Positions 8,285 through 64,000 of a stretch of 64,000 nt of DNA are shown here, piece by piece; the first letter of the stretch is position 1; each line of letters starts with the position of its first letter. Position numbers and translations under genes: made by a program. The stretch is from an uncultured bacterium. Its GTDB lineage: Bacteria > Patescibacteriota > Minisyncoccia > Phycocordibacterales > Phycocordibacteraceae. The stretch covers positions 5,461 to 69,460 of the forward strand of contig CALFMK010000001.1 in assembly GCA_937879955.1 (NCBI GenBank). The letters are read 5' to 3'. The notes beneath the pieces were generated by a model. The model did no database searches. It saw nothing but the letters and a program-made list of their open reading frames with translations, and was not told the origin of the DNA.

Positions 8285-8500
8285 CTATATATAACGTTTA
8301 ATTATCTCAACACTGCCCAAGGTCAGTATGTCTCTACCGACCACTCCGTTCTTACGGGTACTAATTACTTTAATAGCTTCTCGTTCGAGAAAGTACATTA
8401 CCGCAGTGTTCAGAATTAAATTCCTATCCCTCTCCTCTGTAACTAGTAAATCAATCGTTTCAAGGACATCCTCTGGAATATCAAGATTAATTTTAGACAC
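8285..8500 (-). CDS. ribbon-helix-helix (CopG-like) small DNA-binding protein
   Basis: KINLDIPEDVLETIDLLVTEERDRNLILNTAVMYFLERE follows the RHH strand-helix-helix pattern. GTG start, no obvious SD, 23 nt after the upstream ORF. Low GC. Confidence 0.55.
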   Translation of the reverse strand: MSKINLDIPEDVLETIDLLVTEERDRNLILNTAVMYFLEREAIKVISTRKNGVVGRDILTLGSVEIIKRYI

Positions 8501-8523
8501 TGTAAATTCTAAAAATTAAAGCT

Positions 8524-9003: not shown

Positions 9004-9116
9004 ATAATCAGATAGCTCTTTGTATAAGATCAGTATGGGTTTAGGAATATGAAAAATATCTCAAAATTGCATAAAGTAATTATGGAGACAGTGGCAGAAA
9101 GCTGATCTAGTCACTT

Positions 9117-9148
9117 CGAAAAGAAGCACCGGACCACATGTCCGGTGC
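9117..9148 (-). terminator. intrinsic terminator (minus strand) after the 9182-9484 gene
   Basis: GCACCGGAC-ATGTG-GTCCGGTGC on the minus strand, followed by TTCTTTTCG. Confidence 0.6.
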
Positions 9149-9181
9149 TAACTAATATGAATCCTATAAGAAAGAGGCAAA

Positions 9182-9484
9182 TTACTTCTTACCCCAGCGC
9201 CATGATGGCTCTTCGCCAAAGCGTAGGCAGATCCGGTAGAGGGAATAGGAAAGAAGGGCGATAACGCCTGTGAACTCTAAGACTCCGAAAATGATGTCCC
9301 GGGCCCCTACATGGCTCTCGACCGCGGCACCGACCCATCCGAAGAATATAAGGAAGGCGAAGGTGAAGAGGAGGGCATAGAAGACCGTCACGGCCCATCC
9401 CTGCCATGAGACAGGGAACCAGCCCCACCCGAATTCCTTCGCCCGGAACCACAGCTTCCGGGCCTTCCTTTTGTGTTCGCTCAT
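9182..9484 (-). CDS. small integral membrane protein
   Basis: 100 aa with two or three hydrophobic helices (WAVTVFYALLFTFAFLIFFGWVGAAV, IIFGVLEFTGVIALLSYSLY). Confidence 0.6.
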   Translation of the reverse strand: MSEHKRKARKLWFRAKEFGWGWFPVSWQGWAVTVFYALLFTFAFLIFFGWVGAAVESHVGARDIIFGVLEFTGVIALLSYSLYRICLRFGEEPSWRWGKK

Positions 9485-9643
9485 GGGCTTATAATACTGT
9501 AAATAGGCCGTTTTATCCAGGCTTGACTCCTAAAAATGAGGGTCTCCTGAACATGAAGAATTGGCTTTCCACGTCTTGACAGTGGTTGTCAACCCTGCTA
9601 CTATGGGCCTTGTCAGGCCGTCCGCAAGGGCGGTCTTTCATTT

Positions 9644-10258
9644 ATGCCAGTTATTGCAGTAGTAGCCCTTATGGGCTTCCTGTTTTTACCGGGTAGCGCA
9701 GGAGCGCCGGCACAAGCGGAGACGATTTCCGCGCCGGTCGCGATAGCGGGGGCGGCTGAAGAGCCTTCCAAACGCCTGGCCACCTCGAAAGAGGCGGCCC
9801 GGACCTACCAGGTAAGTATGACCGCTTACAATGCCGTTCCCGGCCAGACGGATGCCAACCCATTCGTCACCGCGAGCGGCATGGCCTCGAATCACGAGGT
9901 TGTGGCTGCGCGATCGCGCGATATGGCGGCTGAACTCCCGTTCGGCACCGTCATACGCTTCGAGCGCTCGACGAAGGACACGCCTTCGTGCCGTTTCGGC
10001 GAAGTCGAGCACTTGATGGGGTACCGCATCATCGCGGACACCATGCATGAGCGCTGGAGCCACAAGGTGGACGTGCTCTTCGACCAGACCGATACGGTCA
10101 TGGTCGAGGGACGCATCGTCAACCCGGCGCTCGCCCTCGGTATCTGCGACGACGTGACGATCACGGTCGTGGGAACTGTCGATATGACGGATCCGCCGAC
10201 CACGCAGGCCGAGCTCGCGGCGATGTTCGCCACGCCGACCTACGCGATAGCGAAATAA
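9644..10258 (+). CDS. secreted 3D-domain (RlpA/MltA-like double-psi beta-barrel) cell-wall protein
   Basis: Signal peptide, then YQVSMTAYNAVPGQTDANPFVTASG, the hallmark of 3D-domain proteins. TTGACA-N17-TACTAT promoter at about 9583-9611. Confidence 0.75.
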   Translation: MPVIAVVALMGFLFLPGSAGAPAQAETISAPVAIAGAAEEPSKRLATSKEAARTYQVSMTAYNAVPGQTDANPFVTASGMASNHEVVAARSRDMAAELPFGTVIRFERSTKDTPSCRFGEVEHLMGYRIIADTMHERWSHKVDVLFDQTDTVMVEGRIVNPALALGICDDVTITVVGTVDMTDPPTTQAELAAMFATPTYAIAK

Positions 10259-14996: not shown

Positions 14997-15044
14997 CCCG
15001 CGCCTTGCTACGGAGCCGTGCTTCGCCGTACTATGGGCTCCACT

Positions 15045-15455
15045 ATGACAGCAAAAGGAAAGTACGTACCCGGCGAGTGGACGCTCGCCGTGAAGCGGTC
15101 GAGCGCCGGCCTCGGCCTGTTCGCGGGCGAGCGCATCCCGAAGGGCGCCTGCGTCATCGAGTATGTCGGACGCACGGTATCGAAGGAGGAGAGCGAGACG
15201 AGCAAGAGCAAGTACCTCTTCGAGATCTCGAAGAACAAGACCATCGACGGGAAGCCGAAGATAAACAAGGCGGGGTACATCAACCATGCCTGCAATCCGA
15301 ACTGCGAGACGGAGATAGCGAAAGGCCGCATCTTCGTGATGGCGATCAAGGACATAAAGCCCGGAGACGAACTCACCTACGACTACGGGAAGGAGTACTG
15401 CCTCGAGCACTGCGTCCCGTGCCGCTGCAGCGCGAAGAAGCACCTGTACGGATAG
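15045..15455 (+). CDS. SET-domain protein (putative lysine methyltransferase)
   Basis: GLGLFAGERIPKGACVIEYVG, NHACNPNC, ELTYDY and a Cys-rich tail CLEHCVPCRC. Start set to the ATG at 15045, 10 nt after TACTAT. The track start at 15018 is in the same frame. Confidence 0.8.
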   Translation: MTAKGKYVPGEWTLAVKRSSAGLGLFAGERIPKGACVIEYVGRTVSKEESETSKSKYLFEISKNKTIDGKPKINKAGYINHACNPNCETEIAKGRIFVMAIKDIKPGDELTYDYGKEYCLEHCVPCRCSAKKHLYG

Positions 15456-22897: not shown

Positions 22898-22986
22898 GGG
22901 TGGCATTGTAGCAGGCCCCGGACGCGTCCAGCCACAGATTCCATCGGTTTTGCGCACCTCGCCTCACCCGCGGTATGATGGCGCCA

Positions 22987-23997
22987 ATGTCCCTCTTCTC
23001 ACCGCGCATCGGCATCGACCTCGGCACTACCAATGTCCTCGTGTTCGTGCCTGGGAAGGGCGTGGTCCTGAACGAGCCGTCGGTCGTGGCGGTCTCCACC
23101 GAGACGAACAAGGTGGTCGCCATCGGGGTGGAGGCCAAGGCGATGGTAGGCCGCACCCCGGACTCCATCCAGGCGTACCGCCCGATGAAGGATGGCGTCA
23201 TCGCGGACTATCGCGTGACCGAGGCGATGCTCCGCTATTTCATAAAGAAGGCACTCGGCCGGAACCTCTTCAAGCCCACCGTCCTCATCTCCGTGCCTGC
23301 GGGCGTTTCCTCCACCGAGAAGCGCGCCGTGATCGAGGCTGCCGTGAAGGCGGGCGCGGCAGACGCGTACGTCGTGAAGGAGCCGATCCTCGCCGCGATC
23401 GGTGCCGGAATCCCGATCCAGGAACCGATGGGGCGCATGGTGGCTGACATCGGCGGCGGCACCATCGACGTGGCCGTGATCTCGCTCGGCGGCATCGTGG
23501 CGTCCACCTCCGTGAAGGTGGCAGGGAACAAGCTCGACCGCGCGATCATCGACCATGTGAAGAAGCAGTACAACCTCTCCATCGGCGACAAGTCGGCCGA
23601 GGACATCAAGATCCAGATCGGCTCGGCCGTCCCGGTCACCGAGGAGCTCACGATGTCGGTGAAGGGACGCGACCTCCTCTCGGGCCTCCCGCGCACCATC
23701 GAGCTCAAGACCAACGAGGTGGTGCAGGCACTGAACCGCGAGCTGCGCGACATGATGAACGCGGTGCGCAAGGTGCTGCAGGACACGCCGCCTGAGCTCG
23801 CAAGCGACATCATCGACAACGGCATCATCCTTACGGGCGGCACGAGCCAGCTCCGCCATCTCCCCGAGCTCGTGTATAGGCGCACCGGCGTGCAGGCGAA
23901 GCTCGCCGACGACGCCTACTACTGCGTCGTGCGCGGCACGGGCATCGCGCTCAAGCATCTCGATACCTATAAGAAGAGCATCATCTCGAAGCGGTAA
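22987..23997 (+). CDS. mreB: rod-shape-determining protein MreB (copy 1)
   Basis: IGIDLGTTNVLV, actin-fold phosphate and adenosine motifs (DIGGGTIDVAV, ILTGGTSQL). Start set to the ATG at 22987, 7 nt after TATGAT. In-frame ATGs also lie at 22975 and 22978. Confidence 0.9.
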   Translation: MSLFSPRIGIDLGTTNVLVFVPGKGVVLNEPSVVAVSTETNKVVAIGVEAKAMVGRTPDSIQAYRPMKDGVIADYRVTEAMLRYFIKKALGRNLFKPTVLISVPAGVSSTEKRAVIEAAVKAGAADAYVVKEPILAAIGAGIPIQEPMGRMVADIGGGTIDVAVISLGGIVASTSVKVAGNKLDRAIIDHVKKQYNLSIGDKSAEDIKIQIGSAVPVTEELTMSVKGRDLLSGLPRTIELKTNEVVQALNRELRDMMNAVRKVLQDTPPELASDIIDNGIILTGGTSQLRHLPELVYRRTGVQAKLADDAYYCVVRGTGIALKHLDTYKKSIISKR

Positions 23998-29933: not shown

Positions 29934-30995
29934 ATGGCAAAAGGAAACCGCTTCTCGAAGAGCTCGCTCTTCTCCACCGACATCGGCATCGACCTCGGCA
30001 CCGGCAATACGCTCGTGTACGTGCGCGGCCGCGGCATCGTGATATCGGAGCCGTCGGTGGTGACGCTCAACGAGAAGACCGGCCAGATGGTGGCGGTCGG
30101 GAAGGAGGCGAAGGCCATGCTCGGCAAGACGCCGCCGCACATCCGCGCGGTGCGTCCCTTGTCGCACGGCGTCATCTCCGACTTCGAGGTGACGGAGGAG
30201 CTGCTCGCGTATTTCATAAACAAGGCGCAGGGCGGACGCTCCAGGCTCTTCGGGCCAAGAGTGGTGGTGGGCGTGCCGACCGGCGTGACGAACGTCGAGT
30301 CGAGAGCGGTGCGCGACGCGGCGATGACGGCGGGCGCGCGCGAGGTGTTCATCCTCGAGGAGCCGATGGCGGGCGCGATCGGCGCGAAGCTCCCGGTCAT
30401 GGAGGCGGTGGGCACCATGGTGCTCGACATCGGCGCAGGCACTACCGACATCGCGGTCATCGCGCTCGGCGGATCGGTAGCAGGGAAGAGCTCGCAGGTC
30501 GCGGGCGACCGGTTCAACGAGAACATCATCGATTTCGTGCGCAGCGAGTTCCAGCTCGCCATCGGCGAGAAGACCGCCGAGGACACCAAGATCGCCATCG
30601 GCGCGGTGCTCCCGCTCGCGACGCCGCTCGAGAAGGCGATCCGCGGACGCGACCTCGCCACCGGCCTCCCGCGCGAGATCACCCTCAACGACTCACACAT
30701 GCGCGACGCGCTCGCGCCGTCCATGGAAGCGCTCATGGAGGCGATGAAAGAGGTCATCGAGAAGACGCCGCCCGAGCTCCTCTCGGACGTGCTCGAGCGC
30801 GGCGTCACCGTGTTCGGCGGCGGCGCCTTGCTCCGCGGCCTGCCTGAGCTCCTCGCGAAGATGCTCGGCGTGCCGGTGCACGTGGCCTCTGATCCTCTCA
30901 CGGCCGTGGTGCGTGGCACCGGCGTCGTGACGGAGGACCCGCGCCCGTGGAATGACGCATTCATGCATGAAGAAGCGATTCTCCCGAAGGCATAA
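29934..30995 (+). CDS. mreB: rod-shape-determining protein MreB (copy 2)
   Basis: IGIDLGTGNTLV, DIGAGTTDIAV and VFGGGALLRGL. Starts 4 nt after the proS stop and is followed by mreC, mreD and mrdA. Confidence 0.9.
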   Translation: MAKGNRFSKSSLFSTDIGIDLGTGNTLVYVRGRGIVISEPSVVTLNEKTGQMVAVGKEAKAMLGKTPPHIRAVRPLSHGVISDFEVTEELLAYFINKAQGGRSRLFGPRVVVGVPTGVTNVESRAVRDAAMTAGAREVFILEEPMAGAIGAKLPVMEAVGTMVLDIGAGTTDIAVIALGGSVAGKSSQVAGDRFNENIIDFVRSEFQLAIGEKTAEDTKIAIGAVLPLATPLEKAIRGRDLATGLPREITLNDSHMRDALAPSMEALMEAMKEVIEKTPPELLSDVLERGVTVFGGGALLRGLPELLAKMLGVPVHVASDPLTAVVRGTGVVTEDPRPWNDAFMHEEAILPKA

Positions 30996-35025: not shown

Positions 35026-35460
35026 ATGTTCATCGGAGAATACCGCCACACTCTGGACGCGAAGAACCGCCTCTCGCTCCCGGCGAAGTTCCGCAAGGAG
35101 CTCGGCTCTTCGGTGATCGTGACGCGTGGTCTCGACCACTGCCTCTTCGTGTACCCGAAGGCGGCATGGAAGAAGGAGGCGCAGAAGTTCGCGGAGCACT
35201 CCTCGGGCGGACAGGCCGGCCGCGCGTTCGCGCGCCTCATGCTCGCGGGCGCGAACGAGGTCGACGTCGATACGGCCGGCCGCGTGCTCGTGCCTGACTA
35301 CCTCAAGACCTACGGCGCCCTCACGGGGAAGTGCGTGGTCGCGGGCGTCTCGGACCGCATCGAGATCTGGGACGAGGCGGCATGGGAGACCTACACGAAG
35401 GAGATCGAGCGCGATGCCGATTCCTTCGCGGAGACCCTCGGGGCCAAGGCGCTCGCATAA
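35026..35460 (+). CDS. mraZ: division/cell wall cluster transcriptional regulator MraZ
   Basis: Two SpoVT/AbrB-like halves, DAKNRLSLPAKFR and DTAGRVLVPDYLK. Start trimmed to MFIGEYRH at 35026. Confidence 0.9.
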   Translation: MFIGEYRHTLDAKNRLSLPAKFRKELGSSVIVTRGLDHCLFVYPKAAWKKEAQKFAEHSSGGQAGRAFARLMLAGANEVDVDTAGRVLVPDYLKTYGALTGKCVVAGVSDRIEIWDEAAWETYTKEIERDADSFAETLGAKALA

Positions 35461-35464
35461 CGGT

Positions 35465-36427
35465 ATGGATATGGCACCGGTACAGCGTCACGACACCGTC
35501 CTCCTCAAGGAGGCGGTCGACGCGCTCGAGGTCACGGCCGGCGACGTCGTCGTCGACGCGACGCTCGGCGGGGCAGGGCACTTCGGGGCGCTCCTCGCGC
35601 TGCTTGGCAAGGAGGGCACGCTCGTCGGCATCGACGCGGACAAGGATGCGCTCGTGCGCGCCCAGGCGGTCGTGGATGCGGTTCCGGAGGACGTCCGTCC
35701 GACGGTGCACCTCGTGAACGGGAACTTCCGCGACCTCGCGGTGATCCTCGACGAGCTCGAGCTCACGCCGACGAAGGTCCTCTTCGACCTCGGCTGGAGC
35801 GCCTTCCACCTCACGAGCGGGCGCGGCTTCTCGTTCCGTACGGACGAGCCGCTCCTCATGACCTACGGCGATCCTGAGGGCGTAACGACGGCAGCCGACC
35901 TCGTGAATCATCTCTCGGAGTCCTCGCTCGCCGATCTGCTCTGGTCGCTCGGCGAGGAGCGCTTCGCCCGGTCCATCGCGAAGTCCATCGTCGCCGTGCG
36001 CGAGGAGAAGCCGATCGAGACCACCGCGGACCTCGTCGCCGCGATCGGCGAGGGCGCGCCGTCCTGGTACCAGCATCGCAAGATCCATCCCGCCACGAAG
36101 ACCTTCCAGGCGCTCCGCATCGCCGTGAACGACGAGCTCGGCGCGCTGCGCGAGGGCCTTTCGGTGGCGCTAGAGCGGGTGCCTGCGGGCGGCCGCGTCG
36201 CCGTCATAACCTTCCACAGCACCGAGGACCGCATCGTGAAGACGATGCTCCGCGAGGCGGTGGACGAGGGGAGAGGGACGCTCGCGTCCCGGAAGCCGGT
36301 GGCGCCGTCGGCTGCCGAGCTCGAGAAGAACCCTCGGGCCCGCAGCGCGAAGCTCCGGACGTTCGTCGCCGGTGCGCCTGCCGTTAAGAACCGTATCAAC
36401 CTGACCTCATTTCCAGCCTATGCCTAA
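35465..36427 (+). CDS. rsmH: 16S rRNA (cytosine1402-N4)-methyltransferase
   Basis: VVDATLGGAGH, FDLGWSAFHL and ITFHSTEDRIVK. Start at the ATG at 35465 within the longer track ORF. Confidence 0.92.
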   Translation: MDMAPVQRHDTVLLKEAVDALEVTAGDVVVDATLGGAGHFGALLALLGKEGTLVGIDADKDALVRAQAVVDAVPEDVRPTVHLVNGNFRDLAVILDELELTPTKVLFDLGWSAFHLTSGRGFSFRTDEPLLMTYGDPEGVTTAADLVNHLSESSLADLLWSLGEERFARSIAKSIVAVREEKPIETTADLVAAIGEGAPSWYQHRKIHPATKTFQALRIAVNDELGALREGLSVALERVPAGGRVAVITFHSTEDRIVKTMLREAVDEGRGTLASRKPVAPSAAELEKNPRARSAKLRTFVAGAPAVKNRINLTSFPAYA

Positions 36428-36698
36428 GCTCGCCATCCCCGTCCTCGGATACTCCATCGCCGCCCTCGTCGCGACGTACCTCGTCCTGATCGTGGCCACG
36501 GTCTCGATGGCGGCATGGCAGACGAACCTCGCCATGGAGGTGCATGAGACCGAGTCGGACATCGCACGCCTCGAGTCCCGCTACTACGACATGGTGGCGC
36601 AGATCGACCGCCGGGACCCGGCGAGCATGGGCTTAGTCGCGCCGAAGGCCGTCTCCTACGCGCCGACGAAGGCCGCGCCGACATTCTCGCTCCGCTAG
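36420..36698 (+). CDS. ftsL: FtsL-like small bitopic division protein
   Basis: 92 aa with a single TM followed by a short coiled-coil-like segment. Its position lies between rsmH and ftsI. Confidence 0.55.
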   Translation: MPKLAIPVLGYSIAALVATYLVLIVATVSMAAWQTNLAMEVHETESDIARLESRYYDMVAQIDRRDPASMGLVAPKAVSYAPTKAAPTFSLR

Positions 36699-36702
36699 TC
36701 CT

Positions 36703-38430
36703 ATGCGCCGGGCGATACGAGGACGGCTCCGCATACTGACCATCGGTCTCGCTGCGGTCGCATTGCTGCTCGTCGTGCGGCTCTATTTCGTACAGGTGGT
36801 GCATGGCAGCGAGTTCGCGCTGCGCGCCGAGCGGCAGTACGTCTCGGCGAGCCAGGAGCTCTACGACCGCGGGACGATCTATTTCACCAGGAAGGACGGG
36901 ACGGTGCTCTCGGCCGCCACGCTCGCGAACGGCTTCACGGTCTCGATGAGCCCGAAGCTCGTGAAGGATCCGGAGGCGGCGTACCTGGCCATCTCCGCGC
37001 TCACGCCGATCGACCGCGACGCGTTCATGGCGTCCGCCGCACGGAAGGAGGATCCGTACGAGGTGGTGGCACGCCGTGTCGACGACGATGCGGGCCGCGC
37101 CATCGAGGCGCTCGAGATTCCAGGCATCTCGGTCTCGCGCGAGCGGTGGCGCTCTTATCCGGGAGAGACGCGCGCCGCGCAGTCCATCGGGTTCGTGGCG
37201 TTCGACGACGACGATACGCTCGCCGGCCGCTTCGGCCTCGAGCGCTACTATAACGACGTCCTGTCCCGGGATTCCGTCGGCGTGTTCGGCAACTTCTTCG
37301 CAGAGCTCTTCGCGAACGTGGACAACGCGACGTCCGAGGCGCGCGAGACCCGCGAAGGCGACCTCATAACCTCCATCGAGCCCGTGGTGCAGGAGAAGCT
37401 CGACCAGGTGCTCGCCTCCGTGAACGCGCAGTACGGCTCCCTCGAGACCGGCGGCATCGTCATGGATCCTGCCACCGGCGAGATCATCGCGCTCGACACG
37501 GCGCCCTCATTCGACGCGAACGACTTCGCGAACGGGGACTCGTCGCATTTCGGAAACCCGCTCGTGGAGCACCGCTACGAGTTCGGGTCGATCGTGAAGG
37601 CGCTCACCATGACCGCGGGGCTCGACTCGGGCGTCGTGACCGCGGACTCGACCTATAACGACACCGGCTGCACGACGCTCAACAACAAGACGTTCTGCAA
37701 CTACGACCTCAAGGCGCGCGGCATAACGCCGATGCAGGAGGTGCTCTCGCAGTCCCTGAACATGGGCGCGTCCTACATCGCGCTCAAGGTCGGGCACGAG
37801 AAGCTGCGGACGTACTTCAAGGACCTCGGCATGGCTACCGAGACCGGCGTCGACCTGCCGAGCGAGATCCGTGGCGACCTCGCGAACATCGAGACGTCCC
37901 CGCGCGACATCGAGTACGCCACGGCCTCCTACGGGCAGGGCATCGCGCAGACCCCGATGCAGATGGTGCGGGCGCTGGGCGCCTTGGCCAACGGCGGACA
38001 GGTGGTGACACCGCACCTCGTCTCGAAGATCCGCCTCGAGTCCGGCATCGAGAAGCAGCTCTCCTGGGGCACGCCCGAGCGCGTCTTCAGCGCGAAGGCT
38101 ACCGAAGAGACCACGCGCATGCTCGTGAAGGTGGTGGACACGAAGCTCGCGAACGGGACCGTGAAGATCCCGGAGATGAGCGTGGCCGCGAAGACCGGCA
38201 CCGCCCAGATCGCGGGCCCGGGCGGCAAGTACGCGGAGGGGAAGTACTTCCACTCCTTCTTCGGGTACTTCCCGGCGTACGACCCGAAGTTCATCATCGT
38301 CCTTTACACGCGCGAGCCGCAGGGCGTACAGTACGCCTCTGAGACGCTGACGCTGCCCTTCATGGATCTGACACACTTCCTCATCAATTATTACGAGATC
38401 CCGCCCGACCGGGCCGACTATCCCGCCTAG
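36703..38430 (+). CDS. ftsI: penicillin-binding protein 3-like (division transpeptidase)
   Basis: N-terminal TM, PBP dimerisation domain, SxxK (GSIVKA), SxN (SLN) and KTG (KTGTAQ). Confidence 0.88.
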   Translation: MRRAIRGRLRILTIGLAAVALLLVVRLYFVQVVHGSEFALRAERQYVSASQELYDRGTIYFTRKDGTVLSAATLANGFTVSMSPKLVKDPEAAYLAISALTPIDRDAFMASAARKEDPYEVVARRVDDDAGRAIEALEIPGISVSRERWRSYPGETRAAQSIGFVAFDDDDTLAGRFGLERYYNDVLSRDSVGVFGNFFAELFANVDNATSEARETREGDLITSIEPVVQEKLDQVLASVNAQYGSLETGGIVMDPATGEIIALDTAPSFDANDFANGDSSHFGNPLVEHRYEFGSIVKALTMTAGLDSGVVTADSTYNDTGCTTLNNKTFCNYDLKARGITPMQEVLSQSLNMGASYIALKVGHEKLRTYFKDLGMATETGVDLPSEIRGDLANIETSPRDIEYATASYGQGIAQTPMQMVRALGALANGGQVVTPHLVSKIRLESGIEKQLSWGTPERVFSAKATEETTRMLVKVVDTKLANGTVKIPEMSVAAKTGTAQIAGPGGKYAEGKYFHSFFGYFPAYDPKFIIVLYTREPQGVQYASETLTLPFMDLTHFLINYYEIPPDRADYPA

Positions 38431-38433
38431 ACC

Positions 38434-39717
38434 ATGAAAACCTTCCTGAAGTCCGTCGTCGCCATGCTCCTCGCGGTCCTCGCGAAAGCGGTTGTGCGCA
38501 AGTACCGCCCGCTCGTCGTGATGGTGACCGGAAGCGTCGGGAAGACCTCCACGAAGGATGCGCTCGCGTCCGTGCTCGCCGCCCGCTACCACCTGCGCGC
38601 GAGCGAGAAGAGCTATAACAGCGAGTTCGGCGTCCCGCTCACGATCCTCGGCAGCAAGAACCCGTGGGAGAAGCCGGCGGCATGGCTGCGTGTGGTCGAG
38701 GAGGCGTTCGCGCTCCTCCTCCTTCCGAACCATTACCCGAAGCTCCTCGTGCTCGAGGTGGGTGCGGACCGTCCCGGCGATCTCGCGCGCATCCTGCGCA
38801 TCGTGCGCCCTGACGCGGTGGTGGTCACGCGCCTGCCGGACGTGCCGGTGCACGTGGAGGCGTACGCGAGTCCGCAGGCCGTGCGCGACGAGGAGTTCAC
38901 GCCTGCCTATGCGCTCATCGCGGGCAGCCCGCTCGTGGTCTCCGCCGACGATCCGAACGCCATGACCATGGCGAGCCTGCTGCCGCTCTCCATTAGCACC
39001 TTCGGCTTCTCGGACGGCAGCGACGTCAGGCTCGAGGGGTACTCGTTCTTCGAGGACGGGGAGGTCTGCGGCATGGAGGCCACGCTCAACGTGCGCGGCA
39101 CCTCCTGCACGCTGCGGGTGCCGGGCGCGCTCGGGAAGAGCCAGCTGTACGCGCCTGCCGCCGCCATCGCCTGCGCGCTCACCCTCGACCTCACGCTCGA
39201 AGAGGCACTCAAGGGTGCGGAGAGCTACGTGCCGCCGGCCGGCCGCGGCCGCATCCTGGCCGGCAAGAACGGCTCGCTCCTCATAGACGATTCCTATAAC
39301 GCCTCCCCGGCCGCGGTCGAGGAGGCGCTTTCCGCGCTCCAGCTCCTGACGGGCCGCAAGCGCCGCATCGCGGTGCTCGGCGACATGCTCGAGCTCGGCC
39401 GGTACTCGGCGGAAGAGCACGAGCGCGTGGGAGCGCTCGCGGCAGGGAAGGTGGACGTGGTGGCCGCGGTAGGGACCCGCTCCCGCGCTACCGCCGCCGC
39501 CGCGATCAGCGCCGGGATGAAGGAAGAGGCCGTGTTCTCGTTCGATACCGCGAAGGACGCGGCAGACATGCTCGAGGGCTTTCTCGAGGAGGGGGACGCG
39601 GTGCTCGTGAAGGGCTCGCAGGGCATCCGTACGGAGCGGGTCGTGGAGCGCCTCCTCAAGGACCCGGCTGACTTGCCGAAACTGGTGCGTCAGGAGCGGG
39701 AGTGGAAGAGGCGATAG
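38434..39717 (+). CDS. murF: UDP-N-acetylmuramoyl-tripeptide--D-alanyl-D-alanine ligase
   Basis: Mur ligase P-loop TGSVGKTSTKD. C-terminal domain DDSYNASP...VLGDMLELG. Confidence 0.88.
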   Translation: MKTFLKSVVAMLLAVLAKAVVRKYRPLVVMVTGSVGKTSTKDALASVLAARYHLRASEKSYNSEFGVPLTILGSKNPWEKPAAWLRVVEEAFALLLLPNHYPKLLVLEVGADRPGDLARILRIVRPDAVVVTRLPDVPVHVEAYASPQAVRDEEFTPAYALIAGSPLVVSADDPNAMTMASLLPLSISTFGFSDGSDVRLEGYSFFEDGEVCGMEATLNVRGTSCTLRVPGALGKSQLYAPAAAIACALTLDLTLEEALKGAESYVPPAGRGRILAGKNGSLLIDDSYNASPAAVEEALSALQLLTGRKRRIAVLGDMLELGRYSAEEHERVGALAAGKVDVVAAVGTRSRATAAAAISAGMKEEAVFSFDTAKDAADMLEGFLEEGDAVLVKGSQGIRTERVVERLLKDPADLPKLVRQEREWKRR

Positions 39718-40409: not shown

Positions 40410-40817
40410 ATGCACGATTATTTCGAGATCGTCGTCCCGCGCCAGACGCAGGATCCGATCGCATATATCGAGTTAGCGGAATGGGGAACGGCCACGGTCC
40501 TCTGTGCCCGAAAACGGGTCCGCATCACGTTCGAGATGACCTTCCCGTCGCAGGAGCACATGGACTCGTTCCTCGAAGCGCGTCGCACGCACCGATACGC
40601 GCAGTATGGCGGCCGCATCACGGCGCTCACGCCGACGCACCTGAGCGAGCAAATCCCGTCATCTGAGAGCGAAGATGGGGACAGTCTGGTACTCGGGATA
40701 CGGCAGCTGGCCGAGGTGTTCGGCGTAACGGAGAAGGAGTTCAAGGCGGCGAGGACGCTCGCGGAGTCCGCCATCCTCTCGAAGTACCGTTTCGGAAGAA
40801 GGAGAGCGTCTACCTAA
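40410..40817 (+). CDS. hypothetical protein with possible C-terminal HTH
   Basis: TTGATT-N16-TATAGT promoter and GAAGGAGGAG SD. The C-terminal LGIRQLAEVFGVTEKEFKAAR is HTH-like. Confidence 0.55.
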   Translation: MHDYFEIVVPRQTQDPIAYIELAEWGTATVLCARKRVRITFEMTFPSQEHMDSFLEARRTHRYAQYGGRITALTPTHLSEQIPSSESEDGDSLVLGIRQLAEVFGVTEKEFKAARTLAESAILSKYRFGRRRAST

Positions 40818-41686: not shown

Positions 41687-41758
41687 GGTGGGTTGATGAT
41701 ACCGGCAACAGCCAGGAAAAGAAAAAGGCCCCGACATGATGTCGGGGCCAATGCTGCC

Positions 41759-42766
41759 TCATATAGGGGCGGAAAGTGCGTAGTCTCCGGTCCTCGTGGT
41801 GCGAAGCGCGCTGAGGCCGTGGCTGTGATAGAGCGCCCTCCATTCGGCATACTCCGCCGCGCTCAGTCCCGGATACTTTGCCAGGACGTAGGGAAGCGGG
41901 ATGCCGCCCTTCTCGACGAGCAGGACGATCACCGCCTTGCGGCGTATGACCCATCGCGTGTCCTGCGCTTCGGACGGGAGGTCCTCGGCGCAGATCTTCA
42001 TTCCCAGGGGGCCCGTGATCGTCTTCTTCGGGTCGAAGCAGACCGTCGGGTTCGCGCTCGGATCGAGCCTGAGCTCGCCGAAGTAGTAGCCGCGGCCCCA
42101 GACGGTCCTGAGCGGAGGGTTACCCGGGAAGAACGCCCCGAGAGCCTTCCGCATCCTGCACGCATGCACGTCGATTATCTTCGGATCGACATGCGTGCCT
42201 TCCTCGTGCCTCGCATCCAGCAGCATCTGCCGCGTATGGATGATCCCGGACTTCGAGATGAGGGTCGTGAGCAGGCGGGCCTCGTCAGGGGTGATGCGCG
42301 CGCGCTGGCCCCCGATGAAGACCTCGTCGAGCCCGTTGATGACGATCGGAACGCCTTCGTGCACGGACTCGAGCTTGGTCGCGACGGATTGCAGCTCGGC
42401 TCCGTCTTCAAGCGCGAGCATGTAGCCCCTCCTGGGATGCGTGCTGATGACCTGCCTTGCGGCGGGGTGGCACGCGGCGAGCCGCATGCGGATATGGTGG
42501 ATATGGGTGTCGATCACCTTATCGAGCGGAGGATGCTCCTTGTTGCCGTCGATGACGCGCTTGAGGCTCGCCTTCGACTGCAGATGGCCACGCCGATCCA
42601 TCATGTAGAGGAAGAGCTTCTGCTCCGAAGGCGTGAACTTGGCGGAGATCTCGTTTACTGAGACCTGGCCGCTCGAGGCGATCTTGAACACCAGCTCTCC
42701 GTACGTAAGCTGGATAGGGTCTCGCTGGGGAGCCGCGTGGGTTCCCGTACGTTCGACGACGCTCAT
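41759..42766 (-). CDS. receiverless regulator with two tandem OmpR/PhoB-type winged-helix domains and a C-terminal DUF1153-like HTH
   Basis: Domain 1: FTPSEQKLFLYMMDRRGHLQSKASLKRVI...VIDTHIHHIRMRL...ISTHPRRGYML. Domain 2: ITPDEARLLTTLISKSGIIHTRQMLLDA...IIDVHACRMRKAL...LRTVWGRGYYF. Tail: RWVIRRKAVIVLLVEKGGIPLPYVLAKYPGLSAAEYAEWRALYHSHGLSALRTTR. Start set to the ATG at 42766 with an AGGAG SD; the track start is 42820. Confidence 0.75.
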   Translation of the reverse strand: MSVVERTGTHAAPQRDPIQLTYGELVFKIASSGQVSVNEISAKFTPSEQKLFLYMMDRRGHLQSKASLKRVIDGNKEHPPLDKVIDTHIHHIRMRLAACHPAARQVISTHPRRGYMLALEDGAELQSVATKLESVHEGVPIVINGLDEVFIGGQRARITPDEARLLTTLISKSGIIHTRQMLLDARHEEGTHVDPKIIDVHACRMRKALGAFFPGNPPLRTVWGRGYYFGELRLDPSANPTVCFDPKKTITGPLGMKICAEDLPSEAQDTRWVIRRKAVIVLLVEKGGIPLPYVLAKYPGLSAAEYAEWRALYHSHGLSALRTTRTGDYALSAPI

Positions 42767-42854
42767 GTACTTGCTCCTAGATACCTTGGTTTCAACGAAT
42801 CCAGAGCCAGTAAATGACAAGAAGGAGGCCGTGTCAATAAATAGGACAATGGAA

Positions 42855-42883
42855 AGAGCCGCCCTTCATGGAAGGGCGGCTCT
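42855..42883 (-). terminator. 13-bp hairpin after the CtrA-like copy 1 gene
   Basis: AGAGCCGCCCTTC-ATG-GAAGGGCGGCTCT. Confidence 0.55.
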
Positions 42884-42912: not shown

Positions 42913-43683
42913 TCAGGCCATCGGCGCCGGACTCGGGGCGCCGGAGCCGTTCGTGAAGGCCGGTCTCGCGGCCTCGGCGATCGGAAGATCTTCTGCCATC
43001 ACGCGCTCGTTCGGGTCGCGCAGCACGTAGCCGCGGCCCCAGACGGTCTCGATGTGGTGCCTGCCGCTGTTACCGGAAGCGAGCTTCCTGCGCAGCTTGC
43101 AGACGAACACGTCCACGATCTTGAGTTCCGGCTCGTCCATGCCGCCGTACAGGTGGTTCAGGAACATCTCCTTGGTGAGGGTGGTGCCCTTGCGCAAGGA
43201 GAGGAGCTCCAGTATCTGGTACTCCTTGCCGGTCAGGTGCACGTGCTTCCCGCCGATCTCGACGGTCTTCGCGTCGAGGTTCACGACGATCTCGCCGGTC
43301 TTGATGACCGACTGGGCATGACCCCGCGAGCGCCGCACGATCGCGTGGATGCGCGCGATCATCTCGTCCTTGTGGAACGGCTTGGTCATGTAGTCGTCGG
43401 CGCCGCCCGCGAAGGTCTTCACCTTCATGTCGATCTCGGCGGATCGCGCCAGGATCATGATCGGCGTGTTGACCTTCGCGACCCTGATGGTGCGAAGCAC
43501 GTCGATCGCTGACATGTCGAGCAGGTCGAGACTGAGTACGATCATGTCGTAGTCATATATCTTTGCCAGATCGACGCCCTCCTCGCCCAGGTCGGTCACG
43601 TAGACGTTGAAGCCTTCCGACTTCAGCATCAGCTCGATCGTCTGGGCGGTAGCGCTGTCGTCTTCGATCAGGAGAATACGCAC
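42913..43683 (-). CDS. CtrA-like response regulator paralog with degenerate receiver (Ser at the phospho-acceptor position) and a C-terminal Pro/Ala-rich extension
   Basis: GTG start with a [47 protein letters not shown]... The expected [11 protein letters not shown] reads [12 protein letters not shown], and the conserved T/S reads A ([10 protein letters not shown]). The output domain [52 protein letters not shown]...[11 protein letters not shown] is near-identical to copy 2. Confidence 0.85.
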
Positions 43684-43736
43684 GCTTAGCTCTCCTCTGT
43701 GTCTGTTTGATTATCGGGAACGCATGTCTGGGATTG

Positions 43737-43764
43737 ATGATAGTGATTATCCGGGCATTGTCAA
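43737..43764 (-). promoter_or_regulatory. sigma70-type promoter of CtrA-like copy 1 (TTGACA-N16-TATCAT)
   Basis: -35 at 43764-43759 and -10 at 43742-43737 on the minus strand. Paralogous in sequence to the promoter at 44597-44624. Confidence 0.6.
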
Positions 43765-43851: not shown

Positions 43852-44547
43852 CTACGCCGCGGATACCATCTCGTTCTCGTCGCGCAGCACGTAGCCGCGG
43901 CCCCAGACGGTATCGATGTGATGCTTGCCGCCGTTGCCCGAGCCGAGCTTCTTGCGAAGCTTGCAGATAAAGACGTCCACGATCTTGATCTCGGGAACAT
44001 CGATGCCGCCGTACAGGTGATTCAAGAACATCTCCTTGGAAAGGGCGGTGCCCTTGCGTAGCGACAGGAGCTCGAGCATCTGGTACTCCTTGCCGGTCAG
44101 GTGCACGCGCGTGCCGCCGACCTCGACGGTCTTCATGTCGAGGTTCACGACGATCTCGCCGGTCTTGATGACCGAATGAACGAGACCCTTCGAGCGCCGT
44201 ACGATCGCATAGATGCGAGCCACGAGCTCGTCCTTATGGAACGGCTTGGTCATGTAGTCGTCGGCGCCGAGGTTCAGCGCCTTCACCTTCGTCTCGATGC
44301 GGGTGTCGCCGGTCGAGATCATGACGAGCGTCTCGATCTTCTCGGCGCGGAGCGTCCGGAGAACGTCGAGGCCGTACATGTCAGGCAGGTTAAGGTCGAG
44401 CAGGATCAGGTCGTAGTCGTAGGACCTCGCGAGATCGAGACCCTCCTCGCCCAGGTCGGTCGTCTGGACGCTGAAACCTTCCGACATCAGCATCAGCTCC
44501 ACCGTTTGGGCAGTGGCGCCGTCATCTTCGATCTGGAGAACGCGCAT
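43852..44547 (-). CDS. ctrA: CtrA-type OmpR-family response regulator (canonical receiver)
   Basis: [67 protein letters not shown]...[28 protein letters not shown]...[32 protein letters not shown]...[11 protein letters not shown], ending in ..SAA. It reads along its whole length like alphaproteobacterial CtrA as I remember it. Track ORF trimmed to the ATG at 44547 with an AGGAGG SD. Confidence 0.85.
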
Positions 44548-44674: not shown

Positions 44675-44974
44675 CTAGGGAGGTGGGAAGAGCGGCAGCT
44701 GTCGTGCATCCTGCGCCGCTCGCGCTTCGGCGCGCTCACGCTTCTTGCTGTTTCTCGAACGCGTCGCGCCCGCTTTCTTGCCGTACCGCTGACGGAGTCT
44801 CGCGACGAGGCCTTCGGGCGTATCGGCATCGGGCCAGCAGGTGCTGTTCAGGAACTCGTTCGCCTTTTGTACGAGCTCCTTATTCGTGAATCGGTTAAGG
44901 TCCTTCGGGCCGTGCCGCCTCCGGAAGCGCAGGTTCCGCTCGAATGCGTCGAGACGCTCTTCAGGGGACAGCAT
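44675..44974 (-). CDS. hypothetical basic small protein ending in QLPLFPPP
   Basis: 99 aa with GC-rich third positions. Overlaps the upstream ORF by 14 nt. A terminator follows directly. Confidence 0.5.
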
Positions 44975-45176
44975 GCCGTCTCCTTTTCGGGGCGCGTATG
45001 ATGCCGCGATTCCGGAGTTCGGCGAGGACTTCCGCCACGCGTCTCCTTATATCGGGAGCATGGCGGATATTCTTCCCTTCGATTGCCTTGATCGCCGCGA
45101 GCGGCCACCCGACGCTCTTGTCGGAACGCTGCTTCACGCGGATAGTCGCCTCGGTAAGCTCTGCAATGCTTAACAT
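44961..45176 (-). CDS. hypothetical small protein
   Basis: 71 aa. TTGACA-N18-TATAGT promoter and GAGAGGTG SD upstream. Confidence 0.5.
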   Translation of the reverse strand: MLSIAELTEATIRVKQRSDKSVGWPLAAIKAIEGKNIRHAPDIRRRVAEVLAELRNRGIIRAPKRRRHAVP

Positions 45177-61886: not shown

Positions 61887-62006
61887 ATGGCACGCCGAGC
61901 AAAGAAACATTCCAAGGGACCGGGGCTCGAGGTCTACGCGTTCTGGACCGGGTTCGCGAGCACTATCATCAGCCTCCTGCACGTGCTCATCGTGGCGAGC
62001 AAGTAG
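61887..62006 (+). CDS. possible 39-aa tail-anchored small protein
   Basis: MARRAKKHSKGPGLEVYAFWTGFASTIISLLHVLIVASK. Shares the (L/V)YAF.TG..ST.ISL...(L/V)I.A.K pattern with the previous ORF. Confidence 0.35.
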   Translation: MARRAKKHSKGPGLEVYAFWTGFASTIISLLHVLIVASK

Positions 62007-62010
62007 CGCC

Positions 62011-62130
62011 ATGGCAGAGAATAAGCCTGCACCATCGTTCCGTGACCCGAAGCGCGGCATGAGCGCGTTCTCGAGCAAGGGCGTGAAGAAGCCTGTACGC
62101 GCGTCGTATTTCGGAAAGAAGGCGCGATAG
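62011..62130 (+). CDS. possible 39-aa basic small protein
   Basis: MAENKPAPSFRDPKRGMSAFSSKGVKKPVRASYFGKKAR. Followed 8 nt later by a strong terminator. Confidence 0.3.
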   Translation: MAENKPAPSFRDPKRGMSAFSSKGVKKPVRASYFGKKAR

Positions 62131-62138
62131 GGAAGGGA

Positions 62139-62166
62139 AAAGCCGGAGTAGGGATGCTCCGGCTTT
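62139..62166 (+). terminator. intrinsic terminator closing the LOG / tiny-ORF transcription unit
   Basis: AAAGCCGGAG-TAGGGATG-CTCCGGCTTT followed by T. Confidence 0.65.
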
Positions 62167-62182
62167 TACGTAGGTGGATGCG

Positions 62183-62368
62183 TCATCGGGTGCGGCCGCT
62201 GTAGGTGAGCACGCCGGCGATTATGATCGCGACGGTGACAGTCCGTCCGGCGATCTGTACGACAGGGTCCGGATGGAGATTCGCCGCGAGCGAGCAGAGC
62301 AGCATCACGAGAGCGACGGTGTACAGAATGATCGAGATACCCCTACTTTCAGGACTATGACGCGACAT
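62183..62368 (-). CDS. small membrane protein, hypothetical
   Basis: 61 aa with two hydrophobic helices (ISIILYTVALVMLLCSLAA, VTVAIIIAGVLTY). Confidence 0.4.
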   Translation of the reverse strand: MSRHSPESRGISIILYTVALVMLLCSLAANLHPDPVVQIAGRTVTVAIIIAGVLTYSGRTR

Positions 62369-62554
62369 GGCACGGACCTTTCCTAAAGAGCGATACCGAG
62401 CTCTTCCGCTAGTATGCGCTCCGCCGGGGATTTGTTAAGCAGAAAGGCACTCGACTTTATCTTTTCTTTATCTCTCGTACATACACTGAGCCGGGTAGTT
62501 CTTTCATCCTGCAAGGTCGCCCGTAGCGACTGCGCATGAATACCCGCATAGGGG

Positions 62555-62586
62555 AGAGCGAACCGTCCGTCAGGGCGGTTCGCTCT
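62555..62586 (+). terminator. 13-bp hairpin in the 62.4-62.6 kb ORF-free region
   Basis: AGAGCGAACCGTC-CGTCAG-GGCGGTTCGCTCT followed by TT. Confidence 0.45.
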
Positions 62587-62648
62587 TTAGTGGTGTAATA
62601 TTTTAGCCCTAAACACGGTACGCGCACGGTGCTATAGTCGAGGTATCT

Positions 62649-63014
62649 ATGCCTTGGCCACGAGTGGGGGACTGGTTGGAGAGGATCAGTAAATCGAACG
62701 CGCTCTATCCGCTCCTCATAGCGCTATGCCTCTCCGTCGCGTTCGCCGGTACGGTCATAGCATTCGTACCGAACGTTCTCATCCAGGTCATCGTCTGTAT
62801 ACCAGTGCTGATGATCGTATTCCAGATCGTCCGGAGCTTCGAGTACTTCTCCAAGAACAACCCGGACATGCTCCGGACCGAGACGCATGTGATCCAGCAG
62901 CGCGTCCTCGAGATGATGGGGGACGAGTCCGGCGTCGTGCACGCGACTGCGGCCGACCTGGTAGCCATAACGAATCCTGCGAATACCCAGGATAGAATCG
63001 AAAACCATGGCTAA
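62649..63014 (+). CDS. membrane protein, hypothetical
   Basis: 121 aa with two TM helices (LYPLLIALCLSVAFAGTVIAFV, IQVIVCIPVLMIVFQIV). TATAGT box upstream. Confidence 0.5.
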   Translation: MPWPRVGDWLERISKSNALYPLLIALCLSVAFAGTVIAFVPNVLIQVIVCIPVLMIVFQIVRSFEYFSKNNPDMLRTETHVIQQRVLEMMGDESGVVHATAADLVAITNPANTQDRIENHG

Positions 63015-63294
63015 CATCTATCTTATCGCCGTAAAGAATGATGATTCCTTCAATGTTAAGGAATTCCATAAATTTGTTAAGGAAAAACTCTATCCTGAGC
63101 ATGTGGGCGGTTGGTGGCATTACGTTTCTGGACCAACCTATCTCGTTAAGTCGGAAACACTTGATGCTAAGGGAATATCCGAAATCATCACCCAGTTCAC
63201 TGGCAAGCAGAGTCATCTTGTTACCAAGATCGATCTAGAAGATATCGAAGGAATGTTGCCGGCTCGCGCATGGGACTGGCTCGGACTCTACTAA
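63007..63294 (+). CDS. hypothetical protein (low-GC island)
   Basis: 95 aa. Overlaps the previous gene by 8 nt. AT-rich codon usage. Confidence 0.5.
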   Translation: MANIYLIAVKNDDSFNVKEFHKFVKEKLYPEHVGGWWHYVSGPTYLVKSETLDAKGISEIITQFTGKQSHLVTKIDLEDIEGMLPARAWDWLGLY

Positions 63295-63512
63295 TGGAGC
63301 ACATCACACTTCAAGAGTATGAAGATACTGATGGAACGAGGATGGAGCTCGGTATCCAGTATGACGAAGCTACCTACCAGTTCATCGTTTCCGGAACGCC
63401 AATTAATGGCAATGGGGCGTATGAGGCAGGGAAGACGCCCATTTTCGCATCCTTCCCGACCCTCGAAGAAGCAAGGATGTTCGTAGAAAAGAGTTTCACT
63501 AAGATCTCCTAG
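63294..63512 (+). CDS. hypothetical protein (low-GC island)
   Basis: TAATG stop/start overlap with the previous gene. MEHITLQEYEDTDG... (72 aa). The track start at 63270 is in the same frame. Confidence 0.45.
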   Translation: MEHITLQEYEDTDGTRMELGIQYDEATYQFIVSGTPINGNGAYEAGKTPIFASFPTLEEARMFVEKSFTKIS

Positions 63513-63571
63513 GAATCTTCGGTTTATTTTTTCTCCAGGATTCCTTTATCCGGGGCTGGTAGGGTTCGGAT

Positions 63572-64000
63572 ATGGCAATGGTAGAAGAAAATCTGATACT
63601 TTCCCTCTTGAAGAAAGAGTTTCCGAAGGCGCCCGAACAGGTATTGAGACAATGGCTTGCTCCAGCTGTTAAGAAGGACGGTTGGCCACCGACCGGACTT
63701 CATTGGATCGGTGTATTGGGGAAAAGGGATCTGGATTTCTGGAAAAAGAAGGAATGGTCCCTTAAGGACGTTAACCTCGAAGAAGCTTCCTGGGATTACG
63801 ATACTAGGTACGCGGCAGAAAAGGTGCTCGAAGGGTTTGTTGCATCTCAAGAATCTGAAGTCCTCTTCTCTGATTCTCATGAGAAGCAGAAGGTCATACG
63901 AGCACTTAAGCACCTTTCAGTCGAAGGAAGCTTCTTCGAGCCGATAACCGCATTTCTCGTAGAAAACGAATCTGGTGGCTACTCGCTCGTAGACGGATTC
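63572..64000 (+). CDS. hypothetical protein, N-terminal fragment (runs off window end); possibly ParB/Srx-like
   Basis: Open frame from the ATG at 63572 to the window end (143 codons), so it is absent from the track. It ends ...GGYSLVDGF, reminiscent of the ..LIDG(H/F)HR motif of ParB-like nuclease domains, but the motif is cut by the window edge. Confidence 0.4.
   Translation, partial: MAMVEENLILSLLKKEFPKAPEQVLRQWLAPAVKKDGWPPTGLHWIGVLGKRDLDFWKKKEWSLKDVNLEEASWDYDTRYAAEKVLEGFVASQESEVLFSDSHEKQKVIRALKHLSVEGSFFEPITAFLVENESGGYSLVDGF

Follow-up and report, generated by a model that had tools for sequence, protein, structure and literature searches.

The subject of this study is a gene on the minus strand of a 64-kb stretch of contig CALFMK010000001.1 from an uncultured bacterium (the window, meaning the whole of the DNA analyzed). 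It encodes a 335-amino-acid protein, here called the fusion, in which two tandem winged helix-turn-helix (wHTH) domains of the OmpR/PhoB type, D1 and D2, are followed by a complete SciP (DUF1153) domain. CtrA and SciP are textbook regulators regarded as alphaproteobacterial. The host of this gene is a bacterium of the Patescibacteria/Candidate Phyla Radiation (CPR), within the Paceibacteria, and not an alphaproteobacterium. On the best reading of the sequences, D2 is a winged helix derived from CtrA's DNA-binding domain (DBD) and D1 is an older, strongly diverged duplicate of D2. It is proposed, with a roughly even chance of being right, that the fusion is a receiver-less, hard-wired "CtrA-DBD·SciP" regulator that antagonizes or tunes the transcription driven by two neighboring CtrA proteins, CtrA1 and CtrA2. 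DNA binding, target sites, repression and contact with CtrA are properties that we infer for it.

Domain composition and ancestry of the fusion protein

The gene and its three domains are located as follows, with the basis of each assignment in parentheses:

41759..42766, minus strand, stop codon included: wHTH-wHTH-SciP fusion gene, 335 amino acids (open reading frame (ORF) listing, Pfam and NCBIfam domains, GC content at third codon positions (GC3))
42416..42715, minus strand: D1, divergent OmpR/PhoB-type winged helix, residues 18-117 (Trans_reg_C match of the piece alone, AlphaFold2 topology, family profile)
42080..42379, minus strand: D2, second OmpR/PhoB-type winged helix, residues 130-229, with the CtrA-DBD-like wing TVWGRGY (Trans_reg_C match of the piece alone, identity to CtrA, family profile)
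41780..42028, minus strand: SciP (DUF1153) domain, residues 247-329 (Pfam, NCBIfam)

In Pfam, the whole protein matches Trans_reg_C (PF00486, gathering score 26.2 bits) over two stretches (88 bits, E 4.5e-25) and DUF1153 (PF06627, gathering score 23.5 bits) at residues 247-329 (63.8 bits, E 1.7e-17), with no Response_reg, BTAD or further domain. Searched separately, each piece scores above its gathering score: Trans_reg_C reaches 39.9 bits in the N-terminal piece (E 4.4e-10, residues 43-117) and 52.6 bits in the middle piece (E 4.7e-14), and DUF1153 reaches 67.3 bits in the C-terminal piece (E 1.4e-18). D1 and D2 share 26% identity. An earlier reading, made from the sequence alone, had described two tandem OmpR-type winged helices and a C-terminal DUF1153 domain in a chain devoid of receiver, transmembrane segment and BTAD, and these claims are borne out. 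The protein has no receiver domain and hence lacks the phospho-acceptor Asp51 of CtrA; no BTAD follows its winged helices, as it would in a SARP-type regulator; and neither a signal peptide nor a hydrophobic segment was found in the sequence or in the Pfam scan.

The same reading had left the third domain as an anonymous DUF1153-like helix-turn-helix. It can now be named, since this region matches the NCBIfam family "CtrA inhibitor SciP" (NF051866) at 61 bits over 81 of the 90 profile positions. An alignment with 25 stand-alone SciP-like proteins shows that the core of SciP (GPxG, DLP, RWVxRRKA, E..W and HG..LRTTR..Y) is kept, and both this core and the predicted fold agree with those of solved DUF1153 proteins. 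In the fusions, a clade-specific YPDL stands where free SciPs have RY-xLS. Among free relatives, P0345 (52% identity) is the nearest to the domain; its gene adjoins the flagellar gene fliF, as is typical in Alphaproteobacteria. The alphaproteobacterial association that had been noted for DUF1153 is right as to where the parts came from and fails for the host, which DnaB places in the Patescibacteria/CPR. With the third domain identified as SciP, the reading shifts from three DNA-binding modules to CtrA-type DBDs wired to a CtrA antagonist. In Caulobacter, SciP is an inhibitor of late-S promoters activated by CtrA (PMC6847485); in one view, free SciP binds DNA-bound CtrA and blocks the recruitment of RNA polymerase, and in a rival view it binds DNA directly (PMC4083442).

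Several comparisons connect the two winged helices to CtrA. D2 of the window is 35-37% identical to the DBDs of the adjoining CtrAs (E 1e-14). Family profiles of D1 and D2, built without the query protein, rank the same three groups in the same order: with the D2 profile, CtrA DBDs score 89-101 bits, PhoB 48-50 bits and another OmpR-type regulator of the same genome 35 bits, and with the D1 profile these values are 61-70, 44-49 and 34 bits. When the profile of the whole family was used, the matches listed after the fusions (best 120) were CtrA-type response regulators, and all the named ones were CtrA. Several family members, such as P0258, keep the CtrA recognition helix almost unchanged. The wing TxWGRGY is present in nearly all members, with W223, G224 and G226 of D2 invariant. 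In D1, R93 is the sole residue of the recognition helix that is invariant across the family, and the wing has been lost in P0258, P0263, P0268 and P0287; D2 keeps the wing WGRG.

The AlphaFold2 model of the full-length protein has a predicted TM-score (pTM) of 0.74, and its predicted local distance difference test (pLDDT) falls below 50 solely in the linker between D1 and D2 (residues 123-126). D1 has a complete wHTH topology in this model, and the elements of the winged-helix fold (four-stranded sheet, three-helix bundle and beta-hairpin wing) are present. Fold matches include the PhoB-DNA structure 1GXP, ToxR, CadC, and the SARP regulators AfsR and EmbR. For residues 127-335, from D2 to SciP, pLDDT is 92.8 and pTM 0.87, with a pLDDT of 86-97 in the 30-residue linker. 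Judged from these pTM and pLDDT values, D2 and SciP would form one rigid unit, to which D1 is attached more loosely.

The gene has expression signals of its own, read from the sequence except for the downstream terminator:

42809..42837, minus strand: sigma-70-like promoter of the fusion gene, TTGACA-17-TTTACT
42774-42778, minus strand: Shine-Dalgarno sequence AGGAG of the fusion gene
42851..42883, minus strand: hairpin and T-tract terminator that ends ctrA1 and sets it apart from the fusion gene, AGAGCCGCCCTTCCATGAAGGGCGGCTCTTTCC
41727..41749, minus strand: strong intrinsic terminator 3' of the fusion gene (terminator scan; stem of 10 bp, 8 of them G-C pairs, then a T-run)

The ORF of 1008 nt runs from an ATG at 42766-42764 to a stop codon at 41759-41761. 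An alternative upstream TTG start at 42820 falls within the gene's own promoter, which, together with the AGGAG 7 nt ahead of the ATG, makes 335 amino acids the right product. The promoter consists of a -35 TTGACA (42837-42832), a 17-nt spacer and a -10 TTTACT (42814-42809); it is omitted by the consensus promoter scan because position 2 of the -10 element is not an A. The motif TTGACA-N17-TTTA(C/A)T likewise precedes the orthologues in three related loci (L082, L083 and L086). Its own promoter and the terminators on both sides make the fusion gene a separate transcription unit. Its GC3 (0.82) is like that of the remaining window (0.8-0.9). In an independent assembly from a close strain (SRR14271336, locus L001), the 1008-nt ORF is intact, with 19 substitutions and no indels; 10 codon changes are synonymous and seven are non-synonymous (five in D1, two in D2, none in SciP). 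Together with the low identity among orthologues, these changes show that the gene is maintained yet fast-evolving.

The protein family and its locus beside ctrA

The host assignment rests on DnaB, which in the window is 92-93% identical to that of Patescibacteria/CPR metagenome-assembled genomes (MAGs). Nearly all of its best 80 matches carry CPR labels (Patescibacteria, Paceibacterota, Parcubacteria, Kaiserbacteria and others), and the other matches among them are unclassified MAGs, "bacterium" or "uncultured bacterium." The source contig, 591 kb long, is of a size usual for an entire CPR genome.

A word-indexed search with the fusion returned the query itself, a variant of at least 90% identity and a few SciP/CtrA fusions with their domains arranged differently. 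The family came to light only when 1.84 billion representatives were scanned exhaustively with HMMER, which yielded 72 proteins at E <= 1e-10, including full-length relatives of 307-338 amino acids, 21-28% identical and from different samples. The top 148 HMMER clusters, classed by local domain profiles (hidden Markov models), fall into the following architectures:

D1-D2-SciP: 14 clusters besides the query
wHTH-SciP: 64 clusters
SciP-wHTH: 31 clusters
SciP alone: 25 clusters
wHTH alone: 17 clusters
two or three tandem wHTH domains without SciP: a few clusters (P0302, P0378, P0393)

The three-domain family therefore counts 15 clusters with the query, and about 95 clusters combine one winged helix with SciP; together they make up an unannotated family of wHTH/SciP regulators of about 110 clusters at 50% identity. 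CtrA-SciP and SciP-CtrA fusions also occur (P0002-P0008), and P0006-P0008 keep the receiver domain. The members that have names carry a Patescibacteria label, namely MES2668658.1 (P0267) and the stand-alone wHTH P0338. The two contexts seen for single-wHTH fusions are CPR-like and have no adjacent ctrA. As far as sampled, the three-domain family is restricted to Patescibacteria/CPR. No relatives of the fusion were detected in genome contigs (searched with the fusion), metagenome contigs (searched with P0263 and the fusion) or viral contigs. A tblastn search of phage genomes gave two weak single-domain matches, and plasmids gave PhoB and CtrA DBDs only; these searches rule out a phage or plasmid origin. 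In the literature searched, no paper was found that links tandem winged helices with SciP, and none connecting CtrA or SciP with Patescibacteria, CPR or Parcubacteria. The earlier statement that this architecture belongs to no described family can therefore stand as regards publications, although a family of 15 clusters, itself undescribed, does exist. Two proteins of the tandem class without SciP were observed in passing: P0302 (L090 4549-6663) has 220 amino acids with two CtrA-like winged helices and adjoins a CtrA-like response regulator, which shares 64% identity with the nearest CPR CtrAs and 57% with CtrA1 of the window, and P0393 has three tandem winged helices.

Six loci with readable upstream sequence were recovered for the three-domain family (L001, L082, L083, L086, L091 and L092). 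Five of them have ctrA immediately upstream of the fusion gene (L001, L082, L083 with two copies, L086 and L091), a co-occurrence that the sequence-only reading had named as a check; the upstream fragment of L092 has no detectable similarity to CtrA. The gene for TruB is found downstream, directly or one small ORF away, in the same five loci. On the longer contigs (L082, L083 and L086), YqeY, the P-type ATPase and RmuC, or MurF, recur as well, and the gene order in the window matches that of the relatives' loci. An ORF of 130-135 amino acids without Pfam or NCBIfam match recurs here (window 40410..40817, plus strand; L082 8220-8624; L086 6886-7278), between the fusion gene and TruB in L082 and L086 and just past TruB in the window; at 28% identity, it evolves fast like the fusion.

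The two genes upstream of the fusion gene in the window, claimed earlier as CtrA-type regulators, both exceed the cut-off of the NCBIfam CtrA equivalog (NF045991, 350 bits). They and their signals are:

42913..43683, minus strand: ctrA1, CtrA response regulator, 256 amino acids, S51/D53, 25-amino-acid C-terminal extension (NF045991, 380 bits)
43764-43737, minus strand: ctrA1 promoter, TTGACA type
43852..44547, minus strand: ctrA2, second CtrA paralogue, 231 amino acids from the ATG at 44547, Asp51 kept (NF045991, 359 bits)
44624-44597, minus strand: ctrA2 promoter (promoter and terminator scan)
43827-43800, minus strand: ctrA2 terminator (same scan)

CtrA1 is 86% identical to CtrA of Caulobacter vibrioides over 90% of its length, and the CtrA DBD is nearly identical to that of Caulobacter. 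CtrA2, whose start is an internal ATG with AGGAGG ahead, shares 72% identity with CtrA1 and 77% with CtrA of Caulobacter. The genes ctrA1, ctrA2 and the fusion gene each have a separate promoter and terminator. Upstream of ctrA2 stands a pair of short ORFs that overlap (71 and 99 amino acids, basic, no family match; 44675..45176, minus strand), with a strong promoter of their own (45244-45215) and a terminator.

In Alphaproteobacteria, CtrA is controlled by the CckA-ChpT phosphorelay. At the phospho-acceptor position, CtrA1 has a serine (D51S), with an aspartate at position 53. The CtrAs of L082, L086 and L083a combine N51 and D53 (LLDLNLPD becomes ILNLDLPD) with a change at the conserved Thr/Ser79, and the D53 of these N51 forms looks compensating. 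CtrA2 and L083b keep D51, and where a genome has just one ctrA (L082 and L086), it is of the aspartate-less form. The aspartate-less CtrAs of the relatives are located as follows:

L082, 6318-7013
L086, 4986-5681
L083, 2528-3223

No CckA- or ChpT-like gene was found in the 64-kb window. A hybrid histidine kinase of MASE1 type (12898..14979), considered as a candidate, is not CckA-like by NCBIfam. Since several CtrAs of this clade lack the phospho-acceptor aspartate, a protein antagonist would replace the control exerted by the phosphorelay. The CtrA encoded upstream of the fusion in L091 (2-829) has a C-terminal extension of about 230 amino acids with a winged-helix-like segment at its end, and the upstream fragment of L092 (1-228) ends like this extension.

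The identity between window and relatives' loci, protein by protein, differs widely:

CtrA1: 77-84%
RmuC: 76-77%
YqeY: 71-75%
TruB: 55-58%
MurF: 54%
P-type ATPase: 53-54%
fusion: 25-30%

Within the fusion family, mean pairwise identity is 39.5% for SciP, 30.9% for D2 and 22.4% for D1. Identity to Caulobacter CtrA is 85-87% for CtrA1 and for the CtrAs of L082, L083b and L086 (CtrA2 77%), and the paralogue L083a has diverged to 58%. Compared with Rhodobacterales, Rhizobiales and Rhodospirillales, the main CPR CtrAs and CtrA2 are 59-73% identical, and with Rickettsiales 55-61%; a neighbor-joining tree places them within or beside the CtrAs of Caulobacterales. This Caulobacter-biased identity and the tree together suggest that ctrA was captured horizontally from a Caulobacterales-like donor, and the sequences indicate vertical inheritance with occasional duplication thereafter.

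Possible modes of action

In the proposed mechanism, the fusion would be a protein assembled from parts of the alphaproteobacterial CtrA/SciP switch, namely D2, its diverged duplicate D1 and a complete SciP module. SciP, covalently joined to its own CtrA-like DBD and predicted to be rigidly packed on it, would constitute a hard-wired complex that acts without phosphorylation. D2 would occupy CtrA-type or related half-sites, D1 would provide a second, different DNA contact or a scaffold in a clade-specific manner, and the fusion would antagonize or tune transcription by CtrA1 and CtrA2, most likely at shared or overlapping sites.

A number of observations weigh against this proposal. The score of the SciP domain lies below the equivalog cut-off of NF051866 (100 bits), so the domain is homologous to SciP without being an equivalog, and the published mechanism of SciP, CtrA-dependent or by direct DNA binding, is itself disputed (PMC4083442). 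Should SciP be docked on D2 in cis, contact with CtrA may be impossible for it. D2 of the window, taken alone, scores 58.7 bits with the Paracoccus PhoB DBD (43-49% identity) vs. 37-47 bits with CtrA, and its recognition helix, KIIDVHACRMRKAL, differs from that of CtrA at five positions; with this drift, its DNA specificity may by now differ from that of CtrA. The low identity between orthologues could alternatively reflect relaxed constraint. Finally, the CtrA-type site TTAA-N7-TTAA has no occurrence in the 64-kb window at 0 or 1 mismatch (expected 0.03 and 2.0), and the module promoters of four genomes contain a single 1-mismatch site (L082).

The likeness of D2 to PhoB deserves a separate remark. 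Helices 1-2 of this domain are PhoB-like, and the domain as a whole is nearer to the Paracoccus PhoB DBD than to CtrA or to the D2 of its own family, which could be due to convergence or to a domain replacement within the family. Despite the PhoB-leaning score, a rough neighbor-joining tree still groups D2 of the window with its family.

The search for shared promoter elements also yielded few candidates. Among 12 upstream regions, only the -35 TTGACA and, in 5' untranslated regions (UTRs), CAGAC(A) were recurrent in a k-mer search, and the module promoters hold no conserved direct repeat. The sequence CAGACA occurs 11 times in the window (both strands), four of them in the ctrA1 and ctrA2 leaders:

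43684..43760, minus strand: ctrA1 5'UTR, CAGACA at -47 and -22 from the start codon
44548..44620, minus strand: ctrA2 5'UTR, CAGACA at -43 and -28 from the start codon

CAGAC is also present at -23 to -27 in the leaders of the L083 ctrAb gene and of the L086 and L092 fusion genes; a role as operator or leader element is possible.

Different explanations are conceivable. Tandem dimers on direct repeats are the usual binding mode of OmpR-family regulators, and D1 and D2 could accordingly form an intramolecular head-to-tail pseudo-dimer on a direct-repeat operator, free of phosphorylation; the fusion would then be an autonomous activator or repressor with DUF1153 as a third DNA-binding helix-turn-helix and no link to CtrA. 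Two complete winged-helix folds in a single chain, the existence of tandem-wHTH chains without SciP, the dimerization habit of the OmpR family with 1GXP among the fold matches, and the view that SciP binds DNA directly (PMC4083442) speak for this idea. It is nevertheless unlikely, given that D1 is poorly conserved in both recognition helix and wing, that low confidence in the model is confined to the D1-D2 linker, that 64 + 31 clusters manage with one winged helix and SciP, that a rigid unit of D2 and SciP is predicted, that adjacency to ctrA is conserved, and that the module promoters lack a conserved direct repeat; an intramolecular pseudo-dimer on such a repeat is favored only weakly. The fusion could also be an anti-CtrA adaptor acting in trans, with its SciP domain binding the DBD of free CtrA1 or CtrA2 while D1 and D2 tether the captured CtrA elsewhere or sequester it; D1 or D2 might even mimic CtrA and keep SciP auto-inhibited. 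Direct binding of SciP to CtrA is published (PMC4083442), the SciP module is complete with a conserved core, the CtrA DBD differs little from that of Caulobacter, and the fusion and ctrA genes are adjacent but transcribed separately. However, AlphaFold confidently fixes SciP on D2, which would block binding in trans if the surface is the same, and YPDL replaces the RY-xLS of free SciPs; this explanation is considered unlikely.

CPR bacteria are widely regarded as obligate epibionts (10.1101/2025.01.22.634366). An epibiont of a Caulobacterales-like host could employ host-derived CtrA and SciP mimics as effectors that disturb the host cell cycle or synchronize with it. The closeness of CtrA to that of Caulobacter (81-87% identity) rather than to that of other alphaproteobacterial orders (at most 73%) fits this scenario, as does the evolution of the fusion, far faster than that of its neighbors and arms-race-like. 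It is very improbable, however: the protein lacks a signal peptide or hydrophobic segment, its gene has an ordinary housekeeping context with sigma-70-type promoters and no secretion genes nearby, and the full regulators of the module make sense as an internal circuit. That the gene is an artifact or a decaying remnant, produced by an assembly frameshift, a chimeric contig or the pseudogenization of a duplicated ctrA, might be suspected from the very low orthologue identity and from its near-singleton status in the word-indexed search. A frameshift joining two genes had been named at the outset as a possible refutation. A frameshift fusion or chimera is ruled out by the ORF of L001, which has no indel, and by the 14 further clusters with the same domain order in different samples; with the host-like GC3, the promoter, ribosome-binding site and terminator of the gene, the high-confidence fold, the predominance of synonymous change (with no other kind in SciP) and the CPR housekeeping synteny on both sides in several assemblies, this explanation as a whole is exceedingly improbable.

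A broader hypothesis extends the preferred reading, that of a hard-wired CtrA-DBD·SciP regulator. A clade of ultra-small CPR epibionts may have captured a Caulobacterales-type cell-cycle switch, possibly that of the host, and rebuilt it in phosphorelay-free form, from aspartate-less CtrA and a fast-evolving (CtrA-DBD)2-SciP fusion, in order to couple their own program (attachment, division) to the host cycle or to disturb that cycle; this is unlikely.

Surrounding genes, known systems and significance

The remainder of the window is composed of housekeeping genes: ribonucleotide reductase, a MurA-like enzyme, two MreB proteins, MreC, PBP2, MraW, FtsI and MurF, as well as DnaB, CysRS, RRF, Def, Fmt, TruB, YqeY, RadC, RmuC and a P-type ATPase. 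An Rfam scan detected two tRNAs only. The two MreB paralogues are at 22975..23997 and 29934..30995. The division and cell wall (dcw) cluster (35126..39717) is truncated: MraW, a small ORF and FtsI are followed directly by MurF, with no MurE between, and the cluster ends at tRNA-Glu. A SET-domain protein of 145 amino acids (86 bits) is encoded at 15018..15455 on the plus strand. Two islands, 6001..10000 and 62001..64000, have a low GC content (0.47 and 0.52, vs. about 0.63 elsewhere) and may have been acquired horizontally; the former encodes a 797-amino-acid protein with beta-helix, Big_7 and PG_binding domains, which is probably a surface or cell-wall-acting protein.

Compared with SciP of Caulobacter crescentus (CC_0903; PF06627; NF051866), the C-terminal 85 residues of the fusion form a full SciP module in motifs and predicted fold, and the gene lies next to ctrA, as part of the CtrA circuit. 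SciP is, however, a free protein of about 90 amino acids from Alphaproteobacteria, whereas its counterpart is the third domain of a 335-amino-acid CPR protein, with a sub-threshold score, the YPDL insertion and a predicted docking in cis on a winged helix. By family profile, the DBD of CtrA (NF045991) is the nearest relative of D2 and, more distantly, of D1, and D2 has the wing TVWGRGY in common with CtrA, along with the recognition helix in the majority of family members. The fusion differs from CtrA in having no receiver, Asp51 or phosphorelay control, in carrying two DBDs per chain, and in a window D2 whose recognition helix has diverged and which scores as well or better with PhoB. The metagenomic single-wHTH/SciP fusions (e.g., MES2668658.1) use the same two building blocks in CPR-like contexts but have one winged helix, in either order, and no adjacent ctrA where their context was seen. 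ToxR, CadC, AfsR and EmbR likewise contain an OmpR/PhoB winged helix without a phosphorylatable receiver; in these proteins, a single winged helix is combined with a transmembrane/periplasmic sensor or with BTAD, NB-ARC or TPR domains, and neither a tandem pair nor SciP is present. The parts are thus known, while the architecture, the size of the wHTH/SciP family and its location in CPR beside a Caulobacter-like, often aspartate-less CtrA are undescribed in the literature searched.

These results add a sizeable unannotated family to the known transcriptional regulators. The covalent and apparently rigid wHTH-SciP unit constitutes a natural experiment on the mechanism of SciP and is tractable for structural work on the interface. 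More generally, it suggests a route for rewiring a master regulator of the two-component type in a minimal genome without a phosphorelay. The indicated gene flow from Caulobacterales to CPR also provides a concrete lead on the hosts of an uncultured clade and, if the switch was captured from a host, it would be the first time that a symbiont took over the global regulator module of its host lineage.

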